From assembly GCA_035403965.1 (NCBI GenBank), contig DAONGE010000005.1, forward strand, positions 11,009-75,008: a DNA stretch of 64,000 nt. The letters are read 5' to 3'. The notes under the pieces are model-generated. The model made no database searches. It saw only the letters and a program-made list of their open reading frames with translations, and had not been told where the DNA came from. The position numbers were made by a program, and so were the translations under genes. Positions 2,803 through 49,704 of this stretch are shown here, piece after piece (position 1 is the first letter of the stretch; every line of letters starts with the position of its first letter). Source of the stretch: Candidatus Omnitrophota bacterium. GTDB taxonomy: Bacteria; Omnitrophota; Gorgyraeia; Tantalellales; Tantalellaceae.

Positions 2803-3031
2803 GGTTCATAACATATTACAGTATATTCGGTTAGAGTGCAATTTCTTTGTGATTTGATATTATTTTCGCCGTTAATGGCCTGGGATTAAACTCTGAAAGG
2901 TCTTGTCTTTTGTTGGAGATCAGAATATATTCATTGGAAATTTGCATTGTTAGGAATATTTAGATAAAATAAAGTTAGTATGTTGGTACAATTTCTTCCA
3001 ATGCAAAGGCGCACATGGGGGAGTGGTAGGA

Positions 3032-4447
3032 ATGGCTGGAAAACAGGTAAAAGAGACAATACGGGTGCTTATACTGGAAGACAATGACGTTGACAGTCGG
3101 TTGCTGAGCAATACCCTTCTCGAATCATCCCAGTATGAATATACGATCAAAGTAACAGAAACCCTCAAAGCGGCGTTGGAAGTCCTCGCTAGTGAAAGAT
3201 TTGATATAGTTTTGCTTGATCTCAACCTTTCTGACAGCAAAGGTACAGATACGGTCATGCGTATAAGCCAGGCCAAACCTGATCTACCGATCATAGTAAT
3301 AACAGGCGAATATGATGAAAGTAAGGGGATAGACGCTCTGAATAAGGGGGCGCAGGAATATCTCATTAAGGGTGGTTTTAGTGGAAAAATGCTCGATAAG
3401 GTGATACGGTATTCTGTTGAGAGAAAAAAAACCGAAAAAGTTCTTTTAGAAGAGCAACGTATCTTTTCGACTGTTGTAGGTAATCTACCCGGGATGGCAT
3501 ATCGTGCCTACAACGATACCCGTCGAACTATGGAATTTATCAGTGGTGGTAGTTTCGGTCTTACCGGATATGATCCGGAACATCTGATGAACAATACAAA
3601 GATGGCATACCGTGACATTATAAAAAAAGAGGACAGGGACCTTGTTTGGTATAGCATACAAAACGGTGTTTCCGAGCATAAAATATACAAAATGGGTTAT
3701 AGGATCAGTGCCGCGGATGGTAGAGAAAAATGGGTGTGGGAACAGGGGCAGGGAGTTTTTACGCCCGACGGAAAATTGCTTTTTCTAGAAGGTTTCATAA
3801 TGGATATCAGTGACCGGAAAAGGACCGAAAATGAGCTGGAACACACGATATCGGCTCTTGCAAAAACTTTCGAAGATATGGTGCATGCGCTGGCTTTAAC
3901 CGTAGAAATGAGGGATCCGTATACGGCAGGGCACCAAAAGAGAGTGGCGCAGTTATCGTACGCGCTCGCGAAGGAGCTGGATCTTGGAACGGAAACTGCA
4001 CAGGGGGTATATCTGGCGGGACTTGTGCATGACGTGGGAAAGATATATATCCCGGTCGAGATCCTGGGTAGTCCCCGTAAATTGAATGACGTGGAGTTTT
4101 CTATAATAAAAACTCATTCAAAGGTCGGATTTGATATTCTTAAAAACATTAAATCTCCGTGGCCGATAGCCGAGGTAGCTCTTCAGCATCATGAACGCAT
4201 AAACGGCAGTGGGTATCCGGAAGGTATATGCGGAGATACTATCTTGACCGAGTCAAAGATAGTATCGGTAGCCGATGTTGTTGAGGCGATGGCGTCTCAT
4301 AGACCATATCGTGCCGCTCTTGGAGTCGATATGGCGCTGGCGGAGATACGCCGTAACTCGGGAACATGTTTTGATCCGAAAATAGTCGATGCGTGTGAAG
4401 TGCTTTTTCGGAAAAAAAGTTTTGATTTCAGCGATCCGATCTCCTGA
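3032..4447 (+). CDS. response regulator with REC-PAS-HD-GYP domains (c-di-GMP phosphodiesterase)
   Basis: Receiver domain with phospho-acceptor Asp (ILLDLNLSD), a PAS-like middle region, and an HD-GYP domain (HxxRVA...HDVGK...HHERxNGSGYP). RBS GGGGGAG before ATG 3032. Confidence 0.8.
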   Translation: MAGKQVKETIRVLILEDNDVDSRLLSNTLLESSQYEYTIKVTETLKAALEVLASERFDIVLLDLNLSDSKGTDTVMRISQAKPDLPIIVITGEYDESKGIDALNKGAQEYLIKGGFSGKMLDKVIRYSVERKKTEKVLLEEQRIFSTVVGNLPGMAYRAYNDTRRTMEFISGGSFGLTGYDPEHLMNNTKMAYRDIIKKEDRDLVWYSIQNGVSEHKIYKMGYRISAADGREKWVWEQGQGVFTPDGKLLFLEGFIMDISDRKRTENELEHTISALAKTFEDMVHALALTVEMRDPYTAGHQKRVAQLSYALAKELDLGTETAQGVYLAGLVHDVGKIYIPVEILGSPRKLNDVEFSIIKTHSKVGFDILKNIKSPWPIAEVALQHHERINGSGYPEGICGDTILTESKIVSVADVVEAMASHRPYRAALGVDMALAEIRRNSGTCFDPKIVDACEVLFRKKSFDFSDPIS

Positions 4448-9970: not shown

Positions 9971-10821
9971 TGTCTCAAAACAGCGAAAAATTATATTTAA
10001 GCCCGACCGCCGCTCTTGTGATGAAATGGGCGTCCGGGCTTTATTGTGACGGTATCGCCGCGGAGTTTTTGAAAACGCTGGATCTATCTTCGGCGGATAG
10101 CCTGATAAATATGTGCAATAAGATATGTCCGTGGTACGGCGAGGTTATAATGAATAGGAAGGTATTTATAAAAAAAATAGTAACCGAAAGAATAACCGCG
10201 TATCCGGATTCACAGATAGTGTATCTTGCGGCGGGGCTGTCTCCTTTGGTGATGGAAGTGCTTGCAGAGAATCCCACGGTTGTGAGCAGAGTGTTCGAGA
10301 TAGATATACACAGCATGGATAAGAAGAAAAATATCTACGAAAGATTGATCCCCGATCTTTCCAAAAAAATAAATTGCTATCATGCCGATATAGCGTCCGG
10401 AATATTTGTGAACCTTCTCGATAAGGATAGCGACTTTTCGAAAGACCAGCCGACGATCGTCATCATGGAAGGTATAAGTTATTATCTCTCCAGGCAGGAG
10501 ATGGAAAAGATCCTGTCCGATTTTGTGTCTACGGACCGGAAAAATTTCATAATAATAGAATATCTGCTTCCCGATGAAAGCGTTTCGCCGGAAAAAAGGT
10601 ACATAGCCCAGCAGGTATTTCGTTTGATAAAGGAATTCTCCGGGCTCAGGGATATCGTGAAATATACGGGGGGCGATCTTAAAAATTTATTCATCGCCAG
10701 GAACGGGGGACTGACCGGGCATTATTCCATGAAAGAGATGGAATACGCCAGGCGCGGGGAAAATAAGTTTTTTAATTCCGCGAACAGCTGGTGGATAGAG
10801 TGTGTTACGGGTATTTTATGA
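9967..10821 (+). CDS. class I SAM-dependent methyltransferase (leucine carboxyl methyltransferase/TcmP-like)
   Basis: Start overlaps the upstream stop (ATGA). An LAAGL SAM-binding-like motif. Size and pattern match the LCM/TcmP O-methyltransferase family. Confidence 0.5.
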   Translation: MMSQNSEKLYLSPTAALVMKWASGLYCDGIAAEFLKTLDLSSADSLINMCNKICPWYGEVIMNRKVFIKKIVTERITAYPDSQIVYLAAGLSPLVMEVLAENPTVVSRVFEIDIHSMDKKKNIYERLIPDLSKKINCYHADIASGIFVNLLDKDSDFSKDQPTIVIMEGISYYLSRQEMEKILSDFVSTDRKNFIIIEYLLPDESVSPEKRYIAQQVFRLIKEFSGLRDIVKYTGGDLKNLFIARNGGLTGHYSMKEMEYARRGENKFFNSANSWWIECVTGIL

Positions 10822-10928
10822 CCCTAACCATAATCATTGATTTTTAAAACCCCGTTTAATATAATAAACGCGTGCGTTATCCTGTTTTTAAAGATATGAG
10901 GAAAAATGCGTAAAAATAAGGAGTTACA

Positions 10929-12374
10929 ATGCCATATAGAAGCGATAAAGAGACGAGAGCGATAACCAAAATTATATTGGAAGCTGGAGCGAAAGCGCGT
11001 AAAGAGACCGAAACCACGCCGGAACCGGATCTTACAAAGCCGATGGATTGGCCGGTAACATGCACCGTAGGCCCGGGCCTCGAGGGAGCGATCGCGTGCG
11101 AAACCAAGGTCGGTTACGTGAACGGGGCCAAAGGATGGCTGATATATCGCGGTTATGATATTTTTGAACTGTGCGCCTATTCGACGTTCGAGGAAGTGTC
11201 ATATCTTCTTTTGAACGGGAATCTGCCGACGCATTCGCAGCTTGAGGATTATAAAAATCAGCTGTTGAAGTATAGAAATATGAACAAGATGATGAGTATC
11301 CTGATGGGTTACCCGATCGAAAACATGAATTCTATGGCGGCTATAAGGCTTGGATCAAACCTGATGAGGTATGAACTTCTCGGCGCTGATGCGGAACATA
11401 TCAGGGATATGGAAACTCTCGGAAAGGTTATATCCTCCGACGAGGATTCTATCGCCATGGAAACCGTACCGAAGGGGGAAAAGAACGCCATCTATCATTT
11501 TGATAAAAGAGAGATGGATAGGTCCGAAATAAAAAAGATGGACACAAAGCTTGAGTCCGTAATGGGGCGCGAAAGCTGTTATCATCTGATCTCCGGGGTA
11601 GCGACCATAGCCGCGGCGGTTGCGAGGTTAAAAAAGAGACGGCTACCGTTAGAACCCGATCCCACGCTCAGTCACGCCGGGAATTTTCTTTATATGATGA
11701 CCGGCGAAAAACCGACCCCGCTCGAGGAAAGAGTAATGGACATCGCGCTCATACTTCACGCGGATCACGGTATGAACGCCAGCACGTTCGCCGCGATGGT
11801 CGTGGCTTCGACGCTCGCGGACATATATTTTTCAGTAGGGTCGGGAATAGCGGCTTTGAGCGGTCCGCTTCATGGCGGAGCGAATGAGCATGTGCTGTAT
11901 ATGCTGCGAGATATAGGTGGGTCGAAGAACGTAAAGAAATGGGTCAATAAAGCTATCAAAGAGAAAAAAAGGGTTATGGGGTTTGGGCACCGTGTGTACA
12001 AGGCGTATGATCCCCGTGCTAGGGTGCTTGGGCCGATAGCCGAATATTTGGCGCAACGTACCAGACATGTCAATGATGAGAACTGGAAGATGTTCCAGAC
12101 GGCGCAATCTCTTGAAAAAGAGATACTTGACGCGTTTGGTCGTGACAAAAGGATATTTCCTAACGTAGACTTTTATTCCGGGATCGTGTACTCCTGTATG
12201 GGTATACCTGCCGATATGTTCACACCGATATTCGCGGTAAGCCGTGTGTCTGGATGGACAGCTCGTGTAATGGAGTATCTTGAAAATAACAGGATATTCA
12301 GGCCGCGGGCTATGTATGTAGGTGCGTTTGACCGGAAATATGTTCAGGAAGAGGACAGAGAAGAAGTTAAATAA
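10929..12374 (+). CDS. citrate synthase family protein with N-terminal extension and internal insertion
   Basis: Citrate synthase signature (GPLHGGANE...GFGHRVYKAYDPRA). About 60 extra N-terminal residues and a roughly 50-aa insertion compared with typical sequences. Confidence 0.8.
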   Translation: MPYRSDKETRAITKIILEAGAKARKETETTPEPDLTKPMDWPVTCTVGPGLEGAIACETKVGYVNGAKGWLIYRGYDIFELCAYSTFEEVSYLLLNGNLPTHSQLEDYKNQLLKYRNMNKMMSILMGYPIENMNSMAAIRLGSNLMRYELLGADAEHIRDMETLGKVISSDEDSIAMETVPKGEKNAIYHFDKREMDRSEIKKMDTKLESVMGRESCYHLISGVATIAAAVARLKKRRLPLEPDPTLSHAGNFLYMMTGEKPTPLEERVMDIALILHADHGMNASTFAAMVVASTLADIYFSVGSGIAALSGPLHGGANEHVLYMLRDIGGSKNVKKWVNKAIKEKKRVMGFGHRVYKAYDPRARVLGPIAEYLAQRTRHVNDENWKMFQTAQSLEKEILDAFGRDKRIFPNVDFYSGIVYSCMGIPADMFTPIFAVSRVSGWTARVMEYLENNRIFRPRAMYVGAFDRKYVQEEDREEVK

Positions 12375-14091
12375 ATTTCTCAAAGTATTTTTCGATGTCT
12401 TCCCGGGAAACCGAGCTGTAATAATCGTCCAACATTTTGTTGAAATTTTTTGTGTCGAGATGCAAAAGCTTGCATTTTATATCGTTGAATTTCGACGGCG
12501 TTACGCTGAAATATCTCAGCCCCAAAGTCAACAGTATCGGGTAGAATTCTTCGAAAGCTGCGATCTCTCCGCATAGGCATGCTTCTTTTCCCTGTTTCAG
12601 GGCGGCATCGGCCACGACTTTTATAAGTTTAATCAAAGCGGGATGACAGATGTGATAGCGTTTTTCCGAAGCTATGTTCCCGCGTGTGGAAGCAAGTGTG
12701 TATTGGAGGAGATCATTAGATCCAATATTCACGAAATCCACCTGTTTCAATATTTCCTGTATCATCATTACCGCGCCCGGCGTTTCGATCATAACGCCTT
12801 CCAGAACGCTGTTCACGTCGAATGTTTTTTTCTCTTTTGTAAGATCCCGTATAGAGCTTTGAAGTATCGAACGAAAGACTTTAAGGTCATTTAAATCCGA
12901 TACCATCGGATAAAGAATCCGCAGGTTTGAATTTTTATTTGCCCGTAAAAGGGCTTTGATCTGGGAAGTGTAAAGTTTTGGGAAGGTTTCTACGGCCAGA
13001 GCGCCGCGTAGTTCAGCCCCGGGTGCGATATCAGACGGTAAACTGAGATATGACGGCATTTTGTCGGGGCCGATATCCAGAAGCCGTACTGTTATGGTGT
13101 TTTTAGTTTCTTTCGAAAAGACCTTGCTGTACAGCTCGAATTGTTCGTCTTCAGACGGAGGTGTTTTTCGACCGGTGAAAAGGAATTCGGTTCTTAGAAG
13201 CCCGATGCCTTCGTGATTGAGTTCTTTCGCAAAACCAAATTCGTCCGGGGTGCTGATGTTGAGTTTAAGAAATATCCGAATGCCCGTTTTTGTCTGTGTC
13301 GCGAGTTCTTTATTGATCCCGCATATGTATTTTTGTTTCTGTATGGTCTCCATCTTTTTGTCGTAGTATGATTCGGTTTCGGTGTCAGGTGCTATGACCA
13401 CTTTTCCAAGCGAACCGTCTACGATAACCTTTGACCCGCAATTAAGTTCTTTTTCCACGTTTGTTATCCCGAAGATGATAGGTACGCCGTAAGATCTCGC
13501 TAATATCGTGGCGTGACTAGTGAATCCGCCCTTTTCAGTGATGAAAGCGAGTACGCGTTCACGCGGGATTTGTAATACCATCGACGGGGTAAGCCGTTTC
13601 GCGGCTATTATGACAGCAGTATCGCATCCGATAGAACATTTGAATTTACCGGTTCCGGTGCCCAGTGTTTCAAGCAGACGGTTGCGGGTGTCGATAAAGT
13701 CGTGTATCAGTTCGCCAAAGTGTCCGGTCTGCGAATGGTATTTTTCGATATATTCGTCAAAAACCGAACTGATCGCATGTTCCGTATTTATTAGTTTTGA
13801 TGAAATAAGTCCGGTTACTTTTGTGTACAGGTTGTCATCGCACAGCATCGCAAGATGCGCGGACAGGATATCAGCCGCATCGGGGCCGGATTTTGAACGG
13901 GCGTTATTTATCATTGTTCTCATTTTTTCGCGTGATGTTTCAAAGGCGAACTGGCACCGGTCAAGCTCGTTTTTTAAAGAGGTTTTTTTAATAAAATAGT
14001 AGGGGACAGGGGTATCCGTTTCGGTTGAATATACACAAACAAGGCCTTTTACTATGCCGGCCGCGGCCGAAACGCCTTTTAAGGTCTTCAT
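12367..14091 (-). CDS. ptsI: phosphoenolpyruvate-protein phosphotransferase (PTS enzyme I)
   Basis: Phosphohistidine domain (GGFTSHATILARSYGVPIIFG) and PEP-binding domain (GLLRTEFLF). The start is chosen at an internal Met (MKTLKGVSAAAG) matching EI N-termini. Converges on the citrate synthase stop. Confidence 0.8.
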   Translation of the reverse strand: MKTLKGVSAAAGIVKGLVCVYSTETDTPVPYYFIKKTSLKNELDRCQFAFETSREKMRTMINNARSKSGPDAADILSAHLAMLCDDNLYTKVTGLISSKLINTEHAISSVFDEYIEKYHSQTGHFGELIHDFIDTRNRLLETLGTGTGKFKCSIGCDTAVIIAAKRLTPSMVLQIPRERVLAFITEKGGFTSHATILARSYGVPIIFGITNVEKELNCGSKVIVDGSLGKVVIAPDTETESYYDKKMETIQKQKYICGINKELATQTKTGIRIFLKLNISTPDEFGFAKELNHEGIGLLRTEFLFTGRKTPPSEDEQFELYSKVFSKETKNTITVRLLDIGPDKMPSYLSLPSDIAPGAELRGALAVETFPKLYTSQIKALLRANKNSNLRILYPMVSDLNDLKVFRSILQSSIRDLTKEKKTFDVNSVLEGVMIETPGAVMMIQEILKQVDFVNIGSNDLLQYTLASTRGNIASEKRYHICHPALIKLIKVVADAALKQGKEACLCGEIAAFEEFYPILLTLGLRYFSVTPSKFNDIKCKLLHLDTKNFNKMLDDYYSSVSREDIEKYFEKFI

Positions 14092-22826: not shown

Positions 22827-23024
22827 AGTTGTTCTTTTCCTGTCTGGTTCGTGCTGATGGTGCGAGATTTTGGCCAACACTATAAAGATGGGAGCCTAAC
22901 TTTGGCCTTCCTTAGGGATCGTCAAGAGGGCACCCACATGGTCTTTCGGGACCAAAAATCTTACACCGCCGCGGCCAGATGGGTCTTTTTAGGGGCCGGC
23001 CGAATGTCCGGCCCCTTATTGTCT
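22827..23024 (+). ncRNA. candidate roughly 200-nt non-coding RNA (identity unresolved, 6S-like or SRP-like long hairpin)
   Basis: ORF-free unit bracketed by the promoter above and a strong intrinsic terminator (GGGGCCGG-CCGAATGT-CCGGCCCC + TTATTGTC, 22993-23032). Interior folds into one long imperfect hairpin (22846-22984), including GGTGCGAGATTTTGGCC paired with GGACCAAAAATCTTACACC. Confidence 0.45.
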
Positions 23025-37886: not shown

Positions 37887-38051
37887 TTCGTCCATCTTTC
37901 CAAATCTGAATAGATTTTCTTCTAAATTCCCAAGTTAGTATTTTAAAAAGTTGACTGCTCGCTTTTTATTGGGCATACTCAATACTGACGGGCAAGATAC
38001 CTCGCCAATTAATCTGATTGAAGTTAAGTGATCATAAAAAAGGGGAGTGTT

Positions 38052-41000
38052 ATGAAAAACTTATTAAAAAAATTTAGAGCCAGCAAAGTAACAAAAACAC
38101 TTGTTCTGATGTTGAGCTTTAACGTTGCAGTTTTTGGCATTCCTTTTGATTCTGCGCATGCCATTGATCCGGCGAACCAGTCGGATTACAAAACTATCCC
38201 CCAAAGTATGTCTGGCGGGACTTCACAATTGGAAGTCGTCCGGCAAAACTCGATAAGTGAAATACAAGGCAAAGTTAACACGACTACAACCCACGATACG
38301 ACATGGAAGAAAGAAACAATAAATGCCTCGACTGGAGTTAAAACAGTTTATATATACGCATCTGAGACTGACAAATCTAAAGGACGTTATTCTACGGTTA
38401 TGACATATCGTGCCGATGGTACGTTAAGCGCGGAGACGGGATATGTATATAACACCTATAATGGGACTCTGACCAGAAAAACAGATTATGGATTGACATA
38501 TGGTACGGACGGGAAAACGTTAACTGCTGCGTCAAAATATCAATACGATGAAAATGGGAAAACAAGTGTGTACGCAAAGATCACTTACAGCGCTACTAGC
38601 GGATACTCTAATATAAAGGTAACGGAATACAAATCTGGAACTTCTCTTGCAGAAAATTATTATGAATATAAACTCGACGGAACATTTGTGAAAAGGGATT
38701 ATTATGTCTACGATGCAAACAATAAAGTGAATTGGAAAATGACAGATGCGGCGTCATCTGCTGCGTATTCGCTCTATGAATATGATGTAACGACTGGAAA
38801 AAATATAAGGGTGTATACCTTTAATAAATCAGATGGGGTGCGTACAAAAGAAACAGGATATCTCTGGTATACAAATACAACGACGGCAAAAACCTCCCAA
38901 CTTACAGCGTACAGCATAACCTATAACACGGATGGTAGTACTATAAAAACGGCGGAGTATAGAACATACAGTGAAGGCGTGCTTGTTACAAAGATTGTGG
39001 ATACTGCATCTACGAATCTAAGACAGGAATATCAATATACAGGTGGCGTACGTTTAACGCTTTACCGTACCTATACCTCGGGTGTACTTACGGCAGAAGC
39101 GGCATATACTTACGTGGCGTCGGTGAATAAGGATTTACAGACAAGGGTTTCATCATACAATAGTAGTGGGTGCATTTATAAAGAAACGTGCTATGAGTAT
39201 TATGATACCGGTAAGACGAAAACGGTTATTAAAGATACGCGATCCAATGACGGGAAAATATTGTTGTCTCGATCGATCAGTAATTATAATACTGCCGGGA
39301 CTATAGTTCTTAGCATTGAGGCATATGCATATACATCGGCAGGAGTTTTAAGCACTTATGCGTTCACACAAAATGATGAAGCCGGGAAGAAGATAACCAC
39401 CACAAAATCATATTATTCAAACGGGAAATATGTTTATAAAGAGTATACTTACGTATATTGCAGCGGGACAAACATATTAAGTACGTTGACCACGGATTCA
39501 AAAAATTCCTCCGGAGTGATTTTATCAAGATCCATAGCTACATACGACAGCACCGGGAAGATAGTTCTTACTTCTGAGGTGTTTACGTATTCTTCTGGAG
39601 TATTAACTTCTCACGTTTTGACGAATTATGATACAACAGGGAAGACGGTGGTTTTTAGCCAAACAGAGGTATACAGTAATGGAATTATACAAAGCTCCGT
39701 TATCACTCGATTAGAATCAGCAGTAAAAGAGATTTATACCTATACAGCGGGAGTCCTGACAAGTATGACGCAGTATAACTTAGCCGGTACCGTTCTGCAA
39801 CAAATGACTGTGTACTTACGAATAAACGGTTTAGATAAGGTTACAGATATAACATGTTATGATACAAATGGGAACGTTGTGGGAAAGACGGATTATGATT
39901 ATTATGATTCGGCTGTAGCAAAAACACAAGCGACGTATGATTTTACCAATTTAACATATAGCTATGTATCGTATGCTGAAGATGGGACTATTCTCAAAAA
40001 TGTTTCTAATGCCATAGCGCTTTCGGAATGGAACGCTACTAAGTCTGATATAAGCACATTGGGTTTTAACGGGTATTTGAAGAACGGTGAAGTCGGCTGG
40101 TATACAAATCAGTCTGGATATGTGAAACAATATATAAAAGTTTTAGCCGATGGTGTTTATCAGGTTAGTTTTCGCGCCGAAGGTGTGGCTTTGGATGGAG
40201 TATATCCTCTTATTTCGGTGAGTGTTGATGGGCTTGGGGTGGAGATAGCAAATGTTAATAGTTCAGAACCAGGGCTGTATACGGTAACATTAAATCTTGC
40301 AGAAGGAATACATTCTGTTGGGCTTGATTTTGTGAATGCCACTGCAAAACAGACAGATCCGTCAGGCGCGTCCGAATATTTATGGCGGAGTGTTACGATA
40401 GGAGACATTTCCATAGACAATACGGTGGCGGGGGCGATGCCTGTGATCCTATGCGAAGATTCGGAGTGGGAAGAATATGAGTCTGCTAAGGAGGAAGAAG
40501 TACTTGCAGAGGCAGAAGAGAATATCGTCGCTTCGAAAACGGACGCTACCGTGACTATAGTTGACGAGTCGGGAAATGTCATAGAGGGGGCTCAGGTGAC
40601 GATTGAAGAAACAGAGTCGGATTTCGTATTTGGGACAAACTATATGTGGATAGAAAAATTTGATACTTTTGAGGAAAATTTAGAATACAACCTGGCCTTG
40701 ATCGATGAAATAGCGGCTATATCCAATCAGGCTACGGTTCCGTTATTTTGGAGCTTTCTGGCGCCGCAAGCTGTTTTGGATGGAGATGGCAATGTACAAG
40801 ATATCAGTTTATCCACGGATGCTATTGCTTCTTTAGATCTTCAGCTTGGATTATTAGCACAAAAGGGAATAACAGATATTAATGGTGCGACTCTGGTCTG
40901 GGAGAACAGTGATTTTATGCCGCAGACTTGGTTGGCTGGACTTTCTAATGAGCAGAAAAAAATGGCATTAAAATTATATATACAGAAAATTATAAAGATG

Positions 41001-43622
41001 TATTCAAATAAAACGGTAAGTACGATTAATATTGTAACTGGAGAATGGACAACATGTGATGTTTCCATCAATACGTGGGAAGTTGTGGGCGAACCATACT
41101 ATTTAGATTGTTTTAGCGAATTATGGCCAGATGCAACAAAAGAAACGGTGATAAAGGAAATGTATGATTGGGCGGATGAGGCACGAGCCCAAACAGGGAA
41201 CCCAAACATAAAACTTATGCTTAATGATTATATTTTTCTGGTGGATGGAAATTTACCCTGTTACGACTCATTGAAGAAGTTGGTTGATGCTGGTGTTAAA
41301 TTTGATATTCTCGGGATACAGGCTCACCATTTGATTGATGGGATGGCCGGGTACGATGTCCCATATAATTTAAGTGAACTTAGTTCAATCTTGGATAGAT
41401 ATGCATCGCTGGGGAAAACTATGTATATAACAGAATTTGAGATGCCGAGTAATAATAATGAAATCGTAGGTTCTGTATGGAGAGGGACCAATTGGGATGA
41501 AACGACACGGTCCCAGTATGTTAAGGATTTTTATACTTTGCTGTTTTCTCATCCTGCAATTGCGGGTATTTCATATTGGGACATGGTAGATGTGGCGGGA
41601 CAAGTGCAATATATCCCTTATTCTGGGCTGATCAACGCGGATCTGACTGTTAAAAAAACATACATGGATCTTAAAGATCTGATTAACAATCAATGGAAAA
41701 CAAAAATCGAACAAGCTATTACTGATGAGAACGGACAATATTCGTTTAGAGGTTTTGGTGGTACCTATAAAATATCTGTGGAGGTTGGCAGTGGAAAGAT
41801 GGTTTTTTACAAAGATTTGACTAGAGATCAGTTGAATGATTTGACACTTGTTGTATCAACCGTGCCGGCAGAGACACTATCTTGGATACCATCGAGCCCA
41901 AGTGTATATACTGAAGGTCAAGGTTTTTGGGTATCCGCGGCATATCAATTGGGTTTTGAAGGATATGCTTTGACTGGCCCCGGAGAGGTTGGTGACTATT
42001 TTGCGGTATCAGCAGGGAATTATTGTATTACGGTCACTGCAAGTGGTAGCCCGGCATATGGTGAATACCCCGAGGTTTTGGTTAAAGTGGACGGTATCTA
42101 TGTGAAATCGGCAGTAGTTCAAACAGTGTCTTTGGCCTCATTTACTAATATATCTGTTAATGTGGAATTGACGGAGGGTGTGCATGAAATTGCAGTTGAA
42201 TTTATTAATGATGGCTATGATGCGTCGACAGGGAACGATAGAAATCTTTTAGTTAACAGCATAAAAATAGATCCTACTTCTACTATTGGACAGACAACTC
42301 CAGTTTTAAGTAATAAAGCGGCGTGGATTGCGGCAGAAGCGGCGCGAGAGACCGAAATAATCGAAGAAGCGGAAGCGACTATCGAGGCTACAAGGAAATC
42401 AGATGCGGTTATTACGGTCGTGGATGAATCGGGTAATGTGATTGAAGGAGCGACGGTTACGATCAATCAGACCAGCAGTGATTTTCTCTTTGGTGCGAAT
42501 TTTGCGCTGGATGGGAGTAAAGACCTACAATATAACATTAACCTGCTGTTAACATATGAAGGTTTGTTCAACTATGTGACTATCGGCTGCTTTTGGGAAG
42601 AATTGGAGCCGACAGCGGATGTGCCTAATTGTGATTCTGCGAATTATAAATATTTCGAAATGCTTTTAGGCCTTGCTACGCAGATGGGAATGAAAATTAA
42701 AGCGTCGACTATTTTATGGGGCCAGGATGATCCAGGATTGCCGTCATGGGTATCGGCGCTTTCCGAGGCTGGTCAAATCGCGGCGATAGAAGAACATGTC
42801 CGTAAATTGGTTTCAACGTACAAAGAAAAGACTGTAACAACTTATGATCTGGAAGAGCTTAAGAAGGGTAATTGGGTCGAAAAATCCGTGACAGTGGAAA
42901 TTGATGATTGGGAGGTTGTAAATGAACCTTTTCACTATACGGGTGAATATGATCTCCAGGATGTCTATGCGATAGCTAAAGAGGCAAATCCGGACGCCAA
43001 CTTGATTATCAATGATTATAGCTGTTTTGAGGATGGAGCCGAAGAAGTATATGAAGGATATGAAGATGCGATAAATGATGGCGTCAGTTTTGACTCAATA
43101 GGATTACAGGCGCATCATTTGACCAATACTGCATTCCGGCTTTCTCAGCTTGAAACAGTCCTTGAAAAATATGCCGCACTAGGGAAGTCGTTGTATTTAA
43201 CAGAGTTTGAAGCGGAAACTACGGGAGAGGCGGTTCAAGGTGCGACATGGCGCGGTACCTGGACAAACGAAATGCAGGCAAAATATATAGCGGATTTTTA
43301 TAAGGTTATGTTCGCGAGCTCGGCGATCGCCGGTATAACTTATTGGGATATCATTGACAACGCGAGTTCAACATGGTGTCCGTACGGAGGGTTGCTTAAT
43401 GAGGATCTCACTGCGAAAGCATCTTATACCGTGCTTAAGGATCTGATATTGAATCAATGGCGGACTAATATTGATAACGCAGTGACAAATTCGGCCGGGC
43501 AGTATGCATTCAGGGGCTTTACTGGGACATATGAAGTGACCGTTACGGTTAACGGAGTTTCTAAGACATATGCCTGTAATGTCGCTGACGGGGATGCAAA
43601 TAATATGAAGTTGGTATTTTAA
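38052..43622 (+). CDS. giant secreted multidomain glycoside hydrolase-like protein (Thr/Tyr-rich repeat region plus two CBM-like/GH-A (GH10-like) modules)
   Basis: Signal peptide. About 600 aa of Tyr/Thr-rich degenerate repeats (…TYxYDxxGK…, YD-like). Then two paralogous modules, each a beta-sandwich CBM-like segment, an acidic linker (EEAEENIVASKTDATVTIVDESGNVIEGAQVTI / EEAEATIEATRKSDAVITVVDESGNVIEGATVTI) and a TIM-barrel glycosidase-like domain with WEVV(G/N)EP acid/base-type and (I/L)TEFE nucleophile-type motifs. Confidence 0.65.
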   Translation: MKNLLKKFRASKVTKTLVLMLSFNVAVFGIPFDSAHAIDPANQSDYKTIPQSMSGGTSQLEVVRQNSISEIQGKVNTTTTHDTTWKKETINASTGVKTVYIYASETDKSKGRYSTVMTYRADGTLSAETGYVYNTYNGTLTRKTDYGLTYGTDGKTLTAASKYQYDENGKTSVYAKITYSATSGYSNIKVTEYKSGTSLAENYYEYKLDGTFVKRDYYVYDANNKVNWKMTDAASSAAYSLYEYDVTTGKNIRVYTFNKSDGVRTKETGYLWYTNTTTAKTSQLTAYSITYNTDGSTIKTAEYRTYSEGVLVTKIVDTASTNLRQEYQYTGGVRLTLYRTYTSGVLTAEAAYTYVASVNKDLQTRVSSYNSSGCIYKETCYEYYDTGKTKTVIKDTRSNDGKILLSRSISNYNTAGTIVLSIEAYAYTSAGVLSTYAFTQNDEAGKKITTTKSYYSNGKYVYKEYTYVYCSGTNILSTLTTDSKNSSGVILSRSIATYDSTGKIVLTSEVFTYSSGVLTSHVLTNYDTTGKTVVFSQTEVYSNGIIQSSVITRLESAVKEIYTYTAGVLTSMTQYNLAGTVLQQMTVYLRINGLDKVTDITCYDTNGNVVGKTDYDYYDSAVAKTQATYDFTNLTYSYVSYAEDGTILKNVSNAIALSEWNATKSDISTLGFNGYLKNGEVGWYTNQSGYVKQYIKVLADGVYQVSFRAEGVALDGVYPLISVSVDGLGVEIANVNSSEPGLYTVTLNLAEGIHSVGLDFVNATAKQTDPSGASEYLWRSVTIGDISIDNTVAGAMPVILCEDSEWEEYESAKEEEVLAEAEENIVASKTDATVTIVDESGNVIEGAQVTIEETESDFVFGTNYMWIEKFDTFEENLEYNLALIDEIAAISNQATVPLFWSFLAPQAVLDGDGNVQDISLSTDAIASLDLQLGLLAQKGITDINGATLVWENSDFMPQTWLAGLSNEQKKMALKLYIQKIIKMYSNKTVSTINIVTGEWTTCDVSINTWEVVGEPYYLDCFSELWPDATKETVIKEMYDWADEARAQTGNPNIKLMLNDYIFLVDGNLPCYDSLKKLVDAGVKFDILGIQAHHLIDGMAGYDVPYNLSELSSILDRYASLGKTMYITEFEMPSNNNEIVGSVWRGTNWDETTRSQYVKDFYTLLFSHPAIAGISYWDMVDVAGQVQYIPYSGLINADLTVKKTYMDLKDLINNQWKTKIEQAITDENGQYSFRGFGGTYKISVEVGSGKMVFYKDLTRDQLNDLTLVVSTVPAETLSWIPSSPSVYTEGQGFWVSAAYQLGFEGYALTGPGEVGDYFAVSAGNYCITVTASGSPAYGEYPEVLVKVDGIYVKSAVVQTVSLASFTNISVNVELTEGVHEIAVEFINDGYDASTGNDRNLLVNSIKIDPTSTIGQTTPVLSNKAAWIAAEAARETEIIEEAEATIEATRKSDAVITVVDESGNVIEGATVTINQTSSDFLFGANFALDGSKDLQYNINLLLTYEGLFNYVTIGCFWEELEPTADVPNCDSANYKYFEMLLGLATQMGMKIKASTILWGQDDPGLPSWVSALSEAGQIAAIEEHVRKLVSTYKEKTVTTYDLEELKKGNWVEKSVTVEIDDWEVVNEPFHYTGEYDLQDVYAIAKEANPDANLIINDYSCFEDGAEEVYEGYEDAINDGVSFDSIGLQAHHLTNTAFRLSQLETVLEKYAALGKSLYLTEFEAETTGEAVQGATWRGTWTNEMQAKYIADFYKVMFASSAIAGITYWDIIDNASSTWCPYGGLLNEDLTAKASYTVLKDLILNQWRTNIDNAVTNSAGQYAFRGFTGTYEVTVTVNGVSKTYACNVADGDANNMKLVF

Positions 43623-43702: not shown

Positions 43703-43795
43703 AGTAATATGTAATATAACGAAAAAATACTTTTCAAAATGGGACCTTGTAGTATAATAAAAACGCTCGATTTTTGATAATCAGGTATATTTCGC

Positions 43796-43869
43796 TGGGA
43801 GATGGTGTAACGGTAACACTGATGACTCTGGATCATCCGTTCTTGGTTCGAATCCAAGTCTCCCAGCCA
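43796..43869 (+). tRNA. tRNA-Gln (CTG)
   Basis: U1-A72 acceptor (TGGGAGA/TCTCCCA). Anticodon stem GATGA/TCATC with loop CTCTGGA. T-arm CTTGG-TTCGAAT-CCAAG. Discriminator G and encoded CCA, as in E. coli tRNA-Gln. Confidence 0.85.
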
Positions 43870-44410
43870 TAAAAATCTTTGACAGAAATGTGACGTGGGA
43901 TTTTTATGGGTTCGAAGGCGATGCCTTCGAACCTGAAACTTCCTCGGTTTTTCGTGAAAATGAATTTTCCCGAAAAACCTCGTCAGTTTCAGCTGGGAGT
44001 CTTGGGCTTCTCGCGCGCGTGGCGCGCTCGTCGTCCAAGTTTTCCAGCCAAAATATTTGACAGAGATCAAAATGGTATTTTGGTGAAAAGGGCTTCGCCC
44101 TTTTCTGTGCAAACTCGTCGATTTTTTGAAAGAATGAATTCTTTAAAAAGATCTCCTCGTTTGCACCTGGGAGCCTTGGGCTCCTCGCGCGCGTGGCGCG
44201 CTCGGTGTCCAAGTTTTTCAGCCAAAAAATCTTTGACAGAAATGTGACGTGGGATTTTTATGGGTTCGAAGGCGATGCCTTCGAACCTGAAACTTCCTCG
44301 GTTTTTCGTGAAAATGAATTTTCCCGAAAAACCTCGTCAGTTTCAGCTGTGAGCCTTGGGCAGCTCGCCTTCGGCTCGCTGTCCAAGTTTTTCAGCATAA
44401 TATTTGGAAG
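43870..44410 (+). repeat. tandem array of three roughly 176-bp units (A, B, A') immediately 3' of tRNA-Gln. Each has a TTGACA -35 element, conserved hairpins and a 3' end mimicking the tRNA-Gln acceptor/T-arm (…CCAAGTTTTCCAGCCA)
   Basis: Unit starts (TTGACA) at 43879, 44057 and 44233. Units A and A' are nearly identical for about 150 nt. Unit B has a different middle but the same architecture. Each has a perfect 11-bp hairpin (GGTTCGAAGGC-GAT-GCCTTCGAACC, or GAAAAGGGC-TTC-GCCCTTTTC in B), a long AT-rich hairpin, and a GC hairpin flanked by CTTGG/CCAAG and a T-run. Confidence 0.8.
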
Positions 44411-44439
44411 AGATACAATATTATATTTTGATGTTTGTA

Positions 44440-44533
44440 GGCGTAACGGAGATGAAGTCCTCCGGCTTGTTGTAAGCGAACTGCCCTAAAGGGCTGATGA
44501 CCTCTACCAATTGGGTAGAGGTTTTTTTATTTT
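44440..44533 (+). ncRNA. fluoride riboswitch (crcB motif) with terminator expression platform
   Basis: GGAGAUGAAGUCCUCC…CUGCCCUAAAGGGCUGAUGACCUCUAC closely matches the crcB-motif core (compare GGCGAUGAGGCCCGCC…CUGCCCUGAAAAGGGCUGAUGGCCUCUAC). The 3' CCTCTACC is shared with the terminator stem CCTCTACC-AATT-GGGTAGAGG + T7. crcB lies immediately downstream. The inter-helix linker is atypically long (17 nt). Confidence 0.75.
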
Positions 44534-47997: not shown

Positions 47998-48891
47998 CTA
48001 TTGTAAATATTGCCCGGATCCGATGATATAGGGAATATTGTCTATATTGATCTTTTTCACACAGGATCTTTTCCTGGTCGGGACACGGGTGTCGGGATAC
48101 GGGTAAATATGTTCGATCCACGTGTACTTATCGTAAAGTGCTTCTTTAATGAATTTTTGAACGAAAAAATCACCCTTGATATCTTTCAGATTGATCGTGT
48201 TTTGGCCTTCCATATTCGTGAATATCGGATCCGCGAGGTGTACGCCGTCTTCCGACATGACGAAGATATATACATCCCGGAAGTAAAATCGGCTTTGTTT
48301 GTTCCTAAAATCATTGAAACATTGTGTGCCTTTTGTTTTTGAATCCGCTATAGCCAAGTCTAGTGTATCAAGGATAAAGGCTTTTTCGGTGCGTATGTCA
48401 TAAAGCCCCGTTCCGACAATATAGATTCGTCCAGAATGCGTATATGCTTTTTTAAAATATGAACTTTTCCATGAAGGGGTGGTTGCCCCGGGCTTTGTCC
48501 ACATATAATGTGCCCAGGTGTGATCTCTGCCCGGGGATTGAAGATCTGCTATTATCCATTGCACGAATTTTTTACCGATCGCGTCAGTCAGACTTTTTTC
48601 ATCGCGTCCCATCCGTGAGAGGTCTGAAGGGTCGACGTATCTTATTCCGTTTATGTCGAATACTTCAATATAAACGTCGCCGGAGAACCATTTGGAGTCT
48701 TTTTTATTGAATTCAAAAAAGGCCAGTTCGCCGTTTGCTTCTAGGAACTTTACAGCGTCGTTTACGAGCGATACGATCCTGACAGTTTCGGGATATTCGT
48801 ATTCACGTTCGGGCTTTTCGTCGGCGAAAGACCCGAATGACACGCATGATAAAAATGGAAGTATAAAAAATAATATTTTAAATTTGGCCAT
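47998..48891 (-). CDS. secreted protein with two tandem Cache/PDC-like repeats (hypothetical)
   Basis: Signal peptide MAKFKILFFILPFLSCVSFG at the chosen start (ATG 48891). Two internally similar segments (…FFEFNKKDSKWFSGDVYIEVFDINGIRYVDP… / …FNDFRNKQSRFYFRDVYIFVMSEDGVHLADP…). The longer tracked N-terminus runs into the repeat region and is rejected. Confidence 0.45.
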   Translation of the reverse strand: MAKFKILFFILPFLSCVSFGSFADEKPEREYEYPETVRIVSLVNDAVKFLEANGELAFFEFNKKDSKWFSGDVYIEVFDINGIRYVDPSDLSRMGRDEKSLTDAIGKKFVQWIIADLQSPGRDHTWAHYMWTKPGATTPSWKSSYFKKAYTHSGRIYIVGTGLYDIRTEKAFILDTLDLAIADSKTKGTQCFNDFRNKQSRFYFRDVYIFVMSEDGVHLADPIFTNMEGQNTINLKDIKGDFFVQKFIKEALYDKYTWIEHIYPYPDTRVPTRKRSCVKKINIDNIPYIIGSGQYLQ

Positions 48892-49019
48892 AAAATCCCG
48901 CATTGATTTTAAACACGATAAGTATACAGCAAAATAGTGAAATTTTACAGGGGCTAAATTTAGAAGGATCATAAAGGTGTGAAATAAGTTGAAATGATGC
49001 CTAAAGACAAAAGCAACCC

Positions 49020-49378
49020 AAGAATAGTAGGAAAAGATTAAATGGTGCGCGGAGAAGCCGAAGGCTCCTCGCCTCGCGCGTGCAAGAGAGAAGGACTTTG
49101 GATAGGAAAAACTCGGGTAAAAAGAGAGTAGGTTTTTACTAGACAAAGGACTTCGAGCTTGCGGTTAGGCCGAAGGCCAAACAAAGCAAAGAGAGTAGGA
49201 AAAGATTAAATGGTGCGCGGAGAAGCCGAAGGCTCCTCGCCTCGCGCGTGCAAGAGAGAAGGACTTTGGATAGGAAAAACTCGGGTAAAAAGAGAGTAGG
49301 TTTTTACTAGACAAAGGACTTCGAGCTTGCGGTTAGGCCGAAGGCCAAACAAAGCAAAGAGAGTAGGAAAAGATTAAA
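49020..49378 (-). repeat. tandem roughly 168-bp repeats (about 2.2 copies) 3' of tRNA-Leu(GAG), each regenerating the tRNA 3' acceptor end (…CTCCGCGCACCA)
   Basis: Unit boundaries at 49028, 49194 and 49363 (plus strand GTAGGAAAAGATTAAATGGTGCGCG). Each unit contains GCGCGAG (tRNA 5' acceptor sequence), an 8-bp hairpin (GAGGAGCC-TTC-GGCTTCTC), a GGCCGAAGGCC hairpin and a terminal GCGCACCA. Confidence 0.8.
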
Positions 49379-49465
49379 TGGTGCGCGAGGCGAGACTTGA
49401 ACTCGCACAGGATTGCTCCCCCCAGCCCCTCAAACTGGTGCGTCTGCCGTTCCGCCACTCGCGCA
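49379..49465 (-). tRNA. tRNA-Leu (GAG)
   Basis: Reverse complement GCGCGAGTGGCGGAACGGCAGACGCACCAGTTTGAGGGGCTGG…GCGAGTTCAAGTCTCGCCTCGCGCACCA. Anticodon stem CCAGT/GCTGG with loop TTGAGGG. Long variable arm. Encoded CCA. Confidence 0.8.
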
Positions 49466-49704
49466 CTGTAATAGGCCCGAAATATCCGGGTCGAGGTTCA
49501 TTTATTCTATTGCAGGAGAGCTTTTTCGTCAAGATATGATTACAAGAGAATTTATTGTAAAAGGTCCAAAGTGGAAAACAAATAAAATCTAGTTTACAAC
49601 AAAATTATAGTATGCTATAATTTTGTTGTAAACTAGATTTATGTCGATTTGCGGGCTTATAGAGATAAAAGCTAGTATTTTAGGTGAATAAGGAGTTTGC
49701 TTCT

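Follow-up and report, generated by a model that had tools for sequence, protein, structure and literature searches.

In the 64-kb window analyzed here (the whole stretch of Candidatus Omnitrophota DNA), the gene for tRNA-Leu(GAG) is directly abutted, on the same strand, by an array of tandem 168-nt units, and 5.5 kb from this gene a second array of three 174–181-nt units stands behind tRNA-Gln(CTG). In both arrays the units end in a hairpin that re-creates the terminal part of the tRNA they follow. The explanation that we favor, with about as much confidence as doubt, is that the arrays are co-transcribed, non-coding tRNA 3′ trailers made of structured modules, each capped by a top-half mimic of its own tRNA. 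It draws on the anatomy of the arrays, the tRNA-specific mimicry, RNA-type constraint in the Gln units, recurrence within the phylum, and the parallel offered by the tyrT repeats of Escherichia coli.

The parent of the Leu array is a tRNA gene with an encoded CCA (49379–49464, minus strand), called by ARAGORN and matching the Rfam tRNA model with 48.6 bits. Read in tRNA orientation, a unit runs from the base after ACCA up to the next ACCA; its end reads GCGCGAGGCGAGGAGCCTTCGGCTTCTCCGCGCACCA and the next letters are TTTAATCTTTTCCTACT. Unit 1 (49211–49378, minus strand, 168 nt), supported by Tandem Repeats Finder and by folding, is composed of a CU-rich 5′ stretch, a GGCC-TTC-GGCC hairpin (49336–49346, minus strand; unit 2 copy at 49168–49178), a long imperfect hairpin, and a minihelix with ACCA. 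Between unit 2 (49043–49210, minus strand) and unit 1 the identity is 100%. Behind unit 2 comes a partial, diverged third unit (48996–49042, minus strand), whose first 17 nt equal the unit start exactly and whose likeness then fades across about 45 nt. Tandem Repeats Finder gives the array (49026–49387) a period of 168, 2.2 copies, 100% matches, and a score of 724, which is far beyond chance and, together with the ARAGORN call, confirms the roughly 168-bp tandem units in about 2.2 copies that an earlier sequence-only reading had described. The GGCC-GAA-GGCC hairpin which that reading placed in every unit is the plus-strand view of the GGCC-TTC-GGCC hairpin on the tRNA strand. The whole Leu unit folds with a z-score of −4.05, and 0 of 200 shuffles are as stable. 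There is no ATG on its sense strand.

The architecture of clustered regularly interspaced short palindromic repeats (CRISPR) is not found here: whole 168-nt Leu units are identical head to tail, without unique spacers. Nor are the units dispersed in the manner of repetitive extragenic palindromic (REP) sequences and bacterial interspersed mosaic elements (BIMEs) or of miniature inverted-repeat transposable elements (MITEs), since nhmmer searches with each unit across the window and all fetched loci returned copies only inside its own array.

The minihelices that close the 2 full Leu units (49211–49247 and 49043–49079, both minus strand) have the same sequence. The 37-mer is predicted to fold into 5 bp, a 4-nt bulge, and an 8-bp hairpin with a triloop, leaving ACCA free, with an energy of −20.4 kcal/mol; 4 of 200 shuffles fold as well. 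Its 12-mer GCGCGAGGCGAG (GCGCGAG followed by GCGAG) equals tRNA positions 1–7 joined to positions 49–53, the 5′ strand of the T-stem, exactly; each unit contains it a single time, and none of 500 shuffles does. On the 3′ side the terminal GCGCACCA is exact, while the best match to the last 16 nt of the tRNA takes 4 edits. Because this strand has lost 4 nt relative to the tRNA, pairing of the acceptor heptamer is possible only for GCGCG/CGCGC, and the same loss accounts for the 4-nt bulge. The unit-end structure described from sequence alone stands, refined by the shorter pairing of the heptamer and by the T-stem identity of the 5 bases behind it. The exact repeat common to unit and tRNA is only 8 nt long, and the T-loop is absent.

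The Gln array repeats this design in unrelated sequence, as the sequence-only reading had proposed; neither a covariance model nor nhmmer gives a cross-match between the two. Its parent, tRNA-Gln(CTG) (43796–43869, plus strand; ARAGORN and Rfam), is followed on the plus strand by unit A (43870–44050), which is folded into 4 hairpins, the last being a minihelix (43993–44050) that ends in GCCA; by unit B (44051–44224), which has the same four-hairpin fold maintained by compensatory changes (minihelix 44167–44224); and by unit C (44225–44399), which is about 97% identical to unit A and whose minihelix (44347–44399) is decayed, with CCA changed to CATA. Compared without gaps, unit B agrees with unit A at about 78% of positions. 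After unit C comes a partial unit of about 40 nt that reaches a fluoride riboswitch, so that both arrays close with a diverged partial unit of about 40–50 nt. Tandem Repeats Finder reports the array at 43853–44396 with a period of 174, 3.1 copies, and 70% matches. A family common to the Gln and Leu units was considered and given up: a covariance model built on the Gln units matches nothing else.

The Gln minihelices carry the 12-mer TGGGAG(T/C)CTTGG against TGGGAGA joined to CTTGG in the tRNA (11 of 12 matches, P about 0.002), and their 3′ ends match the last 16 nt of tRNA-Gln at 14 of 16 positions. The predicted helix has 7 + 7 bp plus an extension and a free CCA; the discriminator G is predicted to pair with the C preceding the helix, as is possible in the tRNA precursor too. 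In both arrays a GC-rich hairpin takes the place of the T-loop, the last bases of the unit are the discriminator of its tRNA and CCA, and every NCCA is followed by an AU-rich single-stranded stretch, as it is after the true tRNA. No cloverleaf is recognized in the minihelices by ARAGORN or by the Rfam tRNA model (E ≤ 10). Segments from both tRNA ends are nonetheless present in the units (the 12-mer, the 3′ strand, and NCCA), and the minihelix is an acceptor/T-type top-half mimic of its own neighboring tRNA. The fold, with the exact 12-mer in each Leu unit, bears out the earlier proposal that the units re-create the terminal minihelix of the adjacent tRNA.

Differences among the Gln units give access to the level at which they may be constrained. 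The units fold with z-scores of −7.3 (A) and −6.6 (B), and in the three-unit alignment 96.8% of cells pair. Compensatory double changes occur at 13 of 66 pairs against 4.6 ± 1.7 in shuffles (0 of 500 reach 13) and 0–1 in controls with slid partners, a covariation that rests on 2 independent sequence versions only. Within the minihelix, all departures of the 3′ strand from the tRNA are C→T, turning G-C into G·U pairs, while the G-rich 5′ strand is invariant at 10 of 12 positions; the exceptions are position 7, which lies in an unpaired 1 × 1 loop and differs in all units, and a position with a G→T change in unit C, the decayed one. An asymmetry of this kind is expected if selection acts on the RNA helix formed by the tRNA strand. 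The sense strand is also more stable than the antisense strand by 3.6–5.6 kcal/mol. Taken together, the compensatory pairs, the C→U drift, and the sense-strand stability appear to indicate an RNA-level constraint on the tRNA strand of the Gln units.

Loci of related genomes were anchored by LpxD and by GlnRS. The closest LpxD has 68% identity, and the LpxD-anchored loci have not kept synteny. For 7 of 20 tRNAs in Omnitrophota-type loci, the tRNA's own 3′ end is found again no more than 1 kb downstream, where the chance expectation for recurrence of a 12-mer is below 1e-4 per tRNA. The last 20 nt of a tRNA-Arg(ACG) recur 160 nt downstream in L008, and those of a tRNA-Lys recur 257 nt downstream in L009, with 2 more degenerate copies behind unlike spacers. 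In the GlnRS-anchored loci, gltX-glnS-tRNA-Gln(CTG)...tRNA-Leu(GAG)-tRNA-Glu(CTC) is the ancestral order: tRNA-Gln follows glnS after 50–75 nt in 3 of 4 relatives and after about 860 nt in L099, and in 3 of these 4 tRNA-Leu(GAG) lies on the same strand 0.8–2.4 kb beyond tRNA-Gln. The orthologous tRNA-Gln of L093 is followed by a 180-nt unit ending in an exact 16-nt copy, and the orthologous tRNA-Leu(GAG) of L094 by a 137-nt unit ending in an exact 21-nt copy. The copies in L008, L009, L093, and L094 are all the T-loop-to-CCA segment of the unit's own tRNA. As to the units in relatives, whose conservation the sequence-only reading had made a test, they are thus present at these 2 orthologs, and their distribution is patchy. 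A different arrangement is found behind tRNA-Gln in L095 (7776–8880), where 30-nt repeats running from the T-arm to 5 nt past CCA enclose a 926-nt cassette whose DUF1016 (PD-(D/E)XK-type) gene is read from the opposite strand, with a third, partial copy of the repeat about 95 nt further; no integrase was found near this cassette.

Homology extends from end to end between the L094 (Leu) unit and the L008 (Arg) unit (nhmmer E = 2e-5, 61% identity, 137 columns), yet the terminal 3′ segment is in either case an exact match to the unit's own tRNA. A reverse-complementary 5′ arm accompanies this segment (GGACTTG/CAAGTCC in L094, CAGGATTCG/CGAATCCTG in L008), and the re-matching of the arm between the two units amounts to 2 compensatory double changes. 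In full-unit folds of L094, L008, and E. coli, the tRNA-derived segment lies in a 12–16-bp closing helix with NCCA free, and 1 or 2 hairpin domains occupy the T-loop position. On these predicted folds, the window minihelices are a compact version of the plan seen in the relatives and in E. coli.

The 178-bp repeats behind tyrT and tyrV of E. coli, given as 3.14 copies, have been known since the 1970s and were reportedly studied between 1978 and 1991 by Egan and Landy, by Rossi et al., and by Bosl and Kersten; our literature search found no description of such arrays outside enterobacteria. The tyrT-tyrV locus of E. coli K-12 (L005) has 3.1 copies of a 178-bp unit with 95% identity, annotated rttR and tpr. 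The copies end in AATCCTTCCCCCACCACCA, identical with the tRNA-Tyr 3′ end, and tyrT is separated from tyrV by an additional unit; GGGGAAGGAT near the unit start pairs with ATCCTTCCCC (P = 0.02). Like the window arrays, these are tandem units of about 170–180 bp directly behind a co-oriented tRNA (178 × 3.1 versus 168 × 2.2 and 174 × 3.1), the last copy is partial, and the unit end is the tRNA's own 3′ end plus CCA, paired with an upstream arm. They differ in belonging to another phylum and other tRNAs, and in sequence: the window units have no match to tyrT/rtT (RF00391) at the gathering threshold or at E ≤ 10 and none by nhmmer, and no Rfam family at all matches them or the relatives' trailers at E ≤ 10. 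An E. coli copy is an exact T-loop-to-CCA segment of 19–22 nt, the T-loop position being occupied by an insert of about 100 nt, whereas the window units have the full 5′ acceptor and T-stem strand, a small GC hairpin at the T-loop, and a drifted 3′ strand. The tpr-like open reading frame (ORF) of the E. coli repeats has no equivalent in the window units. The window arrays are thus an independent, non-homologous counterpart of the tyrT/rtT-type tRNA-operon repeats. With 7 of the 20 tRNAs in the Omnitrophota loci and tyrT/tyrV behind it, the sequence-only reading's preference for a recurrent design over 2 accidents holds.

In the explanation that we favor, the Leu array would be the trailer of the tRNA-Leu(GAG) transcription unit, a series of tandem structured 168-nt RNA modules through which the tRNA promoter would be read. 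Such read-through is suggested by the layout: a promoter-like site TTGACG-17-TAGAAT lies upstream of tRNA-Leu (49504–49532, minus strand, by consensus scan), no terminator intervenes, and the units are on the tRNA strand. A second promoter-like site precedes tRNA-Gln (43731–43758, plus strand, same method). No intrinsic terminator was found between either tRNA and its array or within the arrays, and the minihelices lack a U-tract. RNase P would then cut at the 5′ ends of the minihelices, and NCCA with the AU-rich stretch behind it would be treated as a tRNA 3′ end, as established enzymology suggests. The processing machinery that we envisage includes the genome-encoded CCA of the tRNA genes (ARAGORN finds 5 tRNA genes in the window, all encoding CCA) and RNase Y, which is encoded in the window. 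The products would be the tRNA and unit-length, exonuclease-resistant RNAs with tRNA-like, CCA-repairable ends, much as rtT RNA is released from the tyrT transcript. Our best guess for their role is either a stable trailer small RNA (sRNA) or a processing or insulation module between the tRNA and the co-oriented gene downstream, which is crcB with its fluoride riboswitch behind the Gln array and a Cache-domain gene behind the Leu array.

Two known systems bear on these steps. The 3′ external transcribed spacer of the E. coli glyW-cysT-leuZ transcript acts as an sRNA sponge. Like the proposed module, it is a stable RNA made from a tRNA trailer by the tRNA-processing machinery; unlike the window units, it is single-copy and not repeated and has no tRNA-end mimic. 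Bacterial RNase P is known to cleave model hairpins consisting of an acceptor stem and T-stem with a 3′ RCCA (PMC11143913). The window minihelix resembles these substrates in its predicted 13–14-bp helix and its single-stranded NCCA tail and differs from them in that the T-loop is replaced and the Leu version is bulged by 4 nt.

As to origin, the first unit would have come from a duplication or insertion at the tRNA 3′ end, of which the relatives have simpler and apparently younger versions, and the tRNA-derived 3′ segment would then have been locked into a local helix by a complementary 5′ arm. The first unit may have arisen through a recombinase supplied in trans, through repair triggered by a nuclease, or through slipped replication at the T-arm. 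Copy number would later shift by unequal homologous recombination or slippage between identical units, and part of this is seen in the same-species contigs described below. The sequence-only reading had argued for one common generator, either a site-specific recombinase or a templated process, and against slippage. The design is indeed recurrent; neither of the 2 candidate generators is established. Slippage fails for the design and, like unequal recombination, suffices for amplification. Since a change in copy number needs nothing beyond recombination or slippage, those generators are unnecessary for amplification; the recombinase idea stays alive for the origin of the first unit, as the relatives' repeats resemble insertion or att-type duplications.

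Several points weigh against the trailer explanation. Read-through transcription, processing by RNase P or RNase Y, and stability of the RNA are all steps that we infer, and the missing T-loop, or the 4-nt bulge of the Leu version, could mean a poor RNase P substrate. Correction of quasi-palindromes at the DNA level can also yield compensatory changes in perfect hairpins without selection, and the Leu units, being identical to one another, offer no covariation of their own. Folding preference for the sense strand was abandoned as a general argument: it holds for Gln only, the antisense strand folding better in E. coli and in Leu. The window units have no significant nhmmer or covariance-model similarity to the relatives' units, and 2 short local alignments of the Gln hairpins with the L094 unit (z 4–5.6) are only suggestive. 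Units are missing from the orthologous tRNAs of L092 and L099 and from tRNA-Leu of L095, and so patchy a spread is more in keeping with repeated gain and loss than with a conserved function. The control outside Omnitrophota comprises only 4 tRNAs, 0 of them positive, among the matches listed in the LpxD-alignment metagenome scan; these matches came mostly from other phyla and had very few tRNAs, which makes the control a poor one.

The alternative that survives best, although we consider it unlikely, is that the units are integration scars at the tRNA 3′ end: small elements that depend on an integrase, or remnants like those of cis-mobilizable elements (CIMEs), in which an attB core is duplicated, the structures are incidental, and the RNA has no role. 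Tyrosine integrases use attachment (att) sites in tRNA genes with a sublocation in the T-loop, and integrase-less or cis-mobilizable elements can be accreted there in tandem. Serial copies of a tRNA 3′ end downstream of an intact tRNA have this look in the window as well, and the relatives come closer still. Their repeats start in or next to the T-loop and run to CCA or just beyond (20 nt in L008 and L009, 21 nt in L094, 16 nt in L093), one pair brackets a gene cassette (the 926-nt DUF1016 cassette of L095, with its 30-nt repeats and third partial copy), and 3 unlike units in series in L009 resemble accretion. Homologous units stand behind different tRNAs, and in L093 the tRNA and the copy have different terminators behind them, a result expected of an insertion. 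The window units themselves depart from this picture in lacking the exact direct repeat, from the T-loop or anticodon loop to the tRNA 3′ end, that marks a duplicated att site; they have an exact repeat of 8 nt without a T-loop (Leu) or a replaced T-loop (Gln). They also depart from it in carrying a 5′ acceptor strand that an att site does not need. They are tandem and identical (Leu) or homologous (Gln), not a series of unlike insertions, and independent remnants are not expected to be so alike and so small (126–260 nt). The compensatory and C→U-only changes point to RNA-level constraint. The integrase that the sequence-only reading suggested looking for was not found: Pfam searches of the genes at about 36.7–57.5 kb and of 30 further ORFs of the 64-kb window gave no integrase, recombinase, transposase, or reverse transcriptase, and no integrase, recombinase, or transposase was found near any relative's unit. 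Three exact-pattern scans of viral contigs for attP-like patterns, which did not extend to plasmid and genome collections, returned 0, 0, and 1 matches, the single match being an unrelated phage tRNA-Asn.

An origin as tandem duplicates of the complete tRNA gene, now in decay, is somewhat less probable: a second gene copy would have lost positions 8–48 and its T-loop and would be drifting as a harmless pseudogene, with unequal crossing-over lengthening and shortening the array. The junction of positions 1–7 with 49–53, exact in Leu and nearly so in Gln, would be expected from such a deletion; the sequence TTTCAGC just ahead of the Gln minihelices is similar to the tRNA leader (TTTCGC), the arrays end distally in diverged partial units, and in E. 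coli tyrT and tyrV are both intact with one such unit between them. However, the tRNA 5′ flank has no significant homology to the unit spacers (P = 0.07, 0.07, and 0.6), and no relative examined has an intermediate with a full second tRNA copy. The same clean deletion at 2 tRNAs, a drift limited to G·U, and 13 compensatory spacer pairs are not what neutral decay gives. In L094, moreover, the 5′ arm is reverse-complementary to the 3′ copy and does not reproduce the 5′ half of the tRNA's T-arm, so an arm can arise without a gene-internal deletion. The '1–7 + 49–53' strand of the window units can equally be read as the complement of a copied 3′ segment, the two being indistinguishable for fully Watson-Crick stems.

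Far less probable is an origin by reverse transcription or template switching from the tRNA 3′ end, stopping near T-loop position 57–58, with insertion of the product beside the gene. T-loop-to-CCA is the segment that a reverse transcriptase copies from a tRNA primer, and the copies in relatives and in E. coli begin at T-loop positions 56–61 and end with CCA. Against this, no reverse transcriptase was found in the window or the relatives' loci, the copies always adjoin their cognate gene in the same orientation and are never dispersed, and CCA is undiagnostic where it is genome-encoded in tRNA genes.

The array is not an artefact in kind, and that the module exists is beyond doubt. The 2 arrays flank a rhomboid gene, which is found on 4 metagenome contigs from different samples and pipelines (a scan of genome contigs by this gene gave only distant Bacteroidota homologs and no orthologous locus). 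The Gln array is present in all 4 same-species contigs, the sole difference being a 1-nt indel in the window, and the Leu array in every one that reaches the Leu locus (3 others besides the window), with at least 1 full unit and a partial unit each. There are 2 full Leu units in the window, L001, and L003 and 1 in L002, from which unit 2 is absent. L002 is a 'k141' contig, with a k-mer shorter than the 168-nt unit, and the difference may be a real polymorphism or assembly collapse of identical units. An assembly artefact, which the sequence-only reading had allowed for, has a negligible chance of explaining the array: identical 168-nt units do exceed the k-mer of at least 1 assembler (k141), so that copies were possibly miscounted, but the array recurs in 4 assemblies from independent samples and pipelines, the diverged Gln array is the same in all save for 1 nt, and analogous units occur in other species.

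A number of observations concern the surroundings of the arrays. The fluoride riboswitch (44439–44513, 48.6 bits) starts right after the last partial Gln unit and lies ahead of crcB. No promoter specific to crcB was found, so this gene may rely on transcription that starts at the tRNA-Gln promoter and runs on through the array. Internal promoters in the Gln array were considered and rejected: a conserved TTGACAGA(A/G)AT is present at each junction with no acceptable −10 hexamer after it. The ORFs called over the arrays are almost certainly spurious, both the 113-aa Joint Genome Institute call in the Gln array (43906–44247, plus strand) and the TTG-extended 382-aa Cache ORF covering the Leu array (47998–49146, minus strand). 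In the window, a gene for a 1864-aa GH10/CBM60 protein (38028–43622; 5.6 kb) separates glnS from tRNA-Gln, and tRNA-Leu is inverted, so that the arrays converge on a 4.6-kb segment reaching from crcB to the Cache gene. The interval separating the tRNA-Leu promoter from the patatin gene holds a perfect inverted repeat of 26 nt with a 4-nt centre (49585–49640), which carries symmetric promoter-like hexamers TTTACA-17-TATAAT on both strands and looks like an operator, a bidirectional promoter, or a long AT-rich hairpin. The window also has a 6S RNA gene (22834–22989, Rfam 60.4 bits).

Further elements accompany tRNAs in the relatives. An 11-nt hairpin loop, GACGAAYAGGA, on a variable stem occurs 5 times, always on the plus strand, where about 0.05 occurrences are expected by chance (L092 4744–4754, 5645–5655, and 8153–8163; L093 11972–11982; L094 12761–12771). 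It is located in tRNA trailers and once after mgtE, followed by a terminator; it is in neither the window nor Rfam and may be an undescribed small RNA motif. In L094, tRNA-Gln, tRNA-Leu, and tRNA-Glu each have a homologous element of about 95–125 nt (AAATTTGG...GGGCTTCGGGC...CCAAAT) followed by a terminator (11811–11939, 12864–12987, and 13134–13231). These lack a tRNA 3′ copy and are a second family of tRNA-trailer elements. In L008 (5484–5600, minus strand), the first 23 nt of tRNA-Arg(ACG), comprising the acceptor 5′ strand and the D-arm, are duplicated 88 nt upstream, and the duplicate adjoins its own reverse complement. The gene just downstream of this tRNA is tadA, encoding the tRNA-specific deaminase of which it is the substrate. 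Genes for GIY-YIG nucleases of about 87 aa lie 90–110 nt downstream of tRNAs (Leu, Val, and Gln) in 3 Omnitrophota contigs (L092 5704–5967; L010 7739–8002, beside a LAGLIDADG gene; L099 about 10730–10990). In L100, the closest GlnRS relative, the place directly behind glnS that tRNA-Gln occupies in other relatives is taken by a near-perfect palindrome of about 280 nt (2950–3235), possibly an assembly fold-back.

Omnitrophota and, by the tyrT precedent, enterobacteria might share a recurrent, undescribed class of tRNA-trailer modules of 130–260 nt with tRNA-specific top-half mimics, a generalization that we put forward as doubtful. The re-matching of homologous modules to different tRNAs points either to a small element that captures or duplicates the T-loop-to-CCA segment of its target tRNA gene without a nearby integrase or to selection for a tRNA-specific mimic. 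If the class is real, the mimic could compete with its tRNA, or serve as a decoy, for enzymes or toxins acting at that tRNA's acceptor end, or it could be a natural substrate or guide for RNase P. For annotation, the practical point is that gene callers put spurious ORFs across such arrays. The mode of action of rtT RNA is still called unknown, and a version in a distant phylum turns the oddity of a single organism into a comparative problem. It raises the questions of what generates T-loop-to-CCA copies, why they are locked in a helix with a free CCA, and whether cells use top-half mimics as RNA end modules, processing signals, or decoys.

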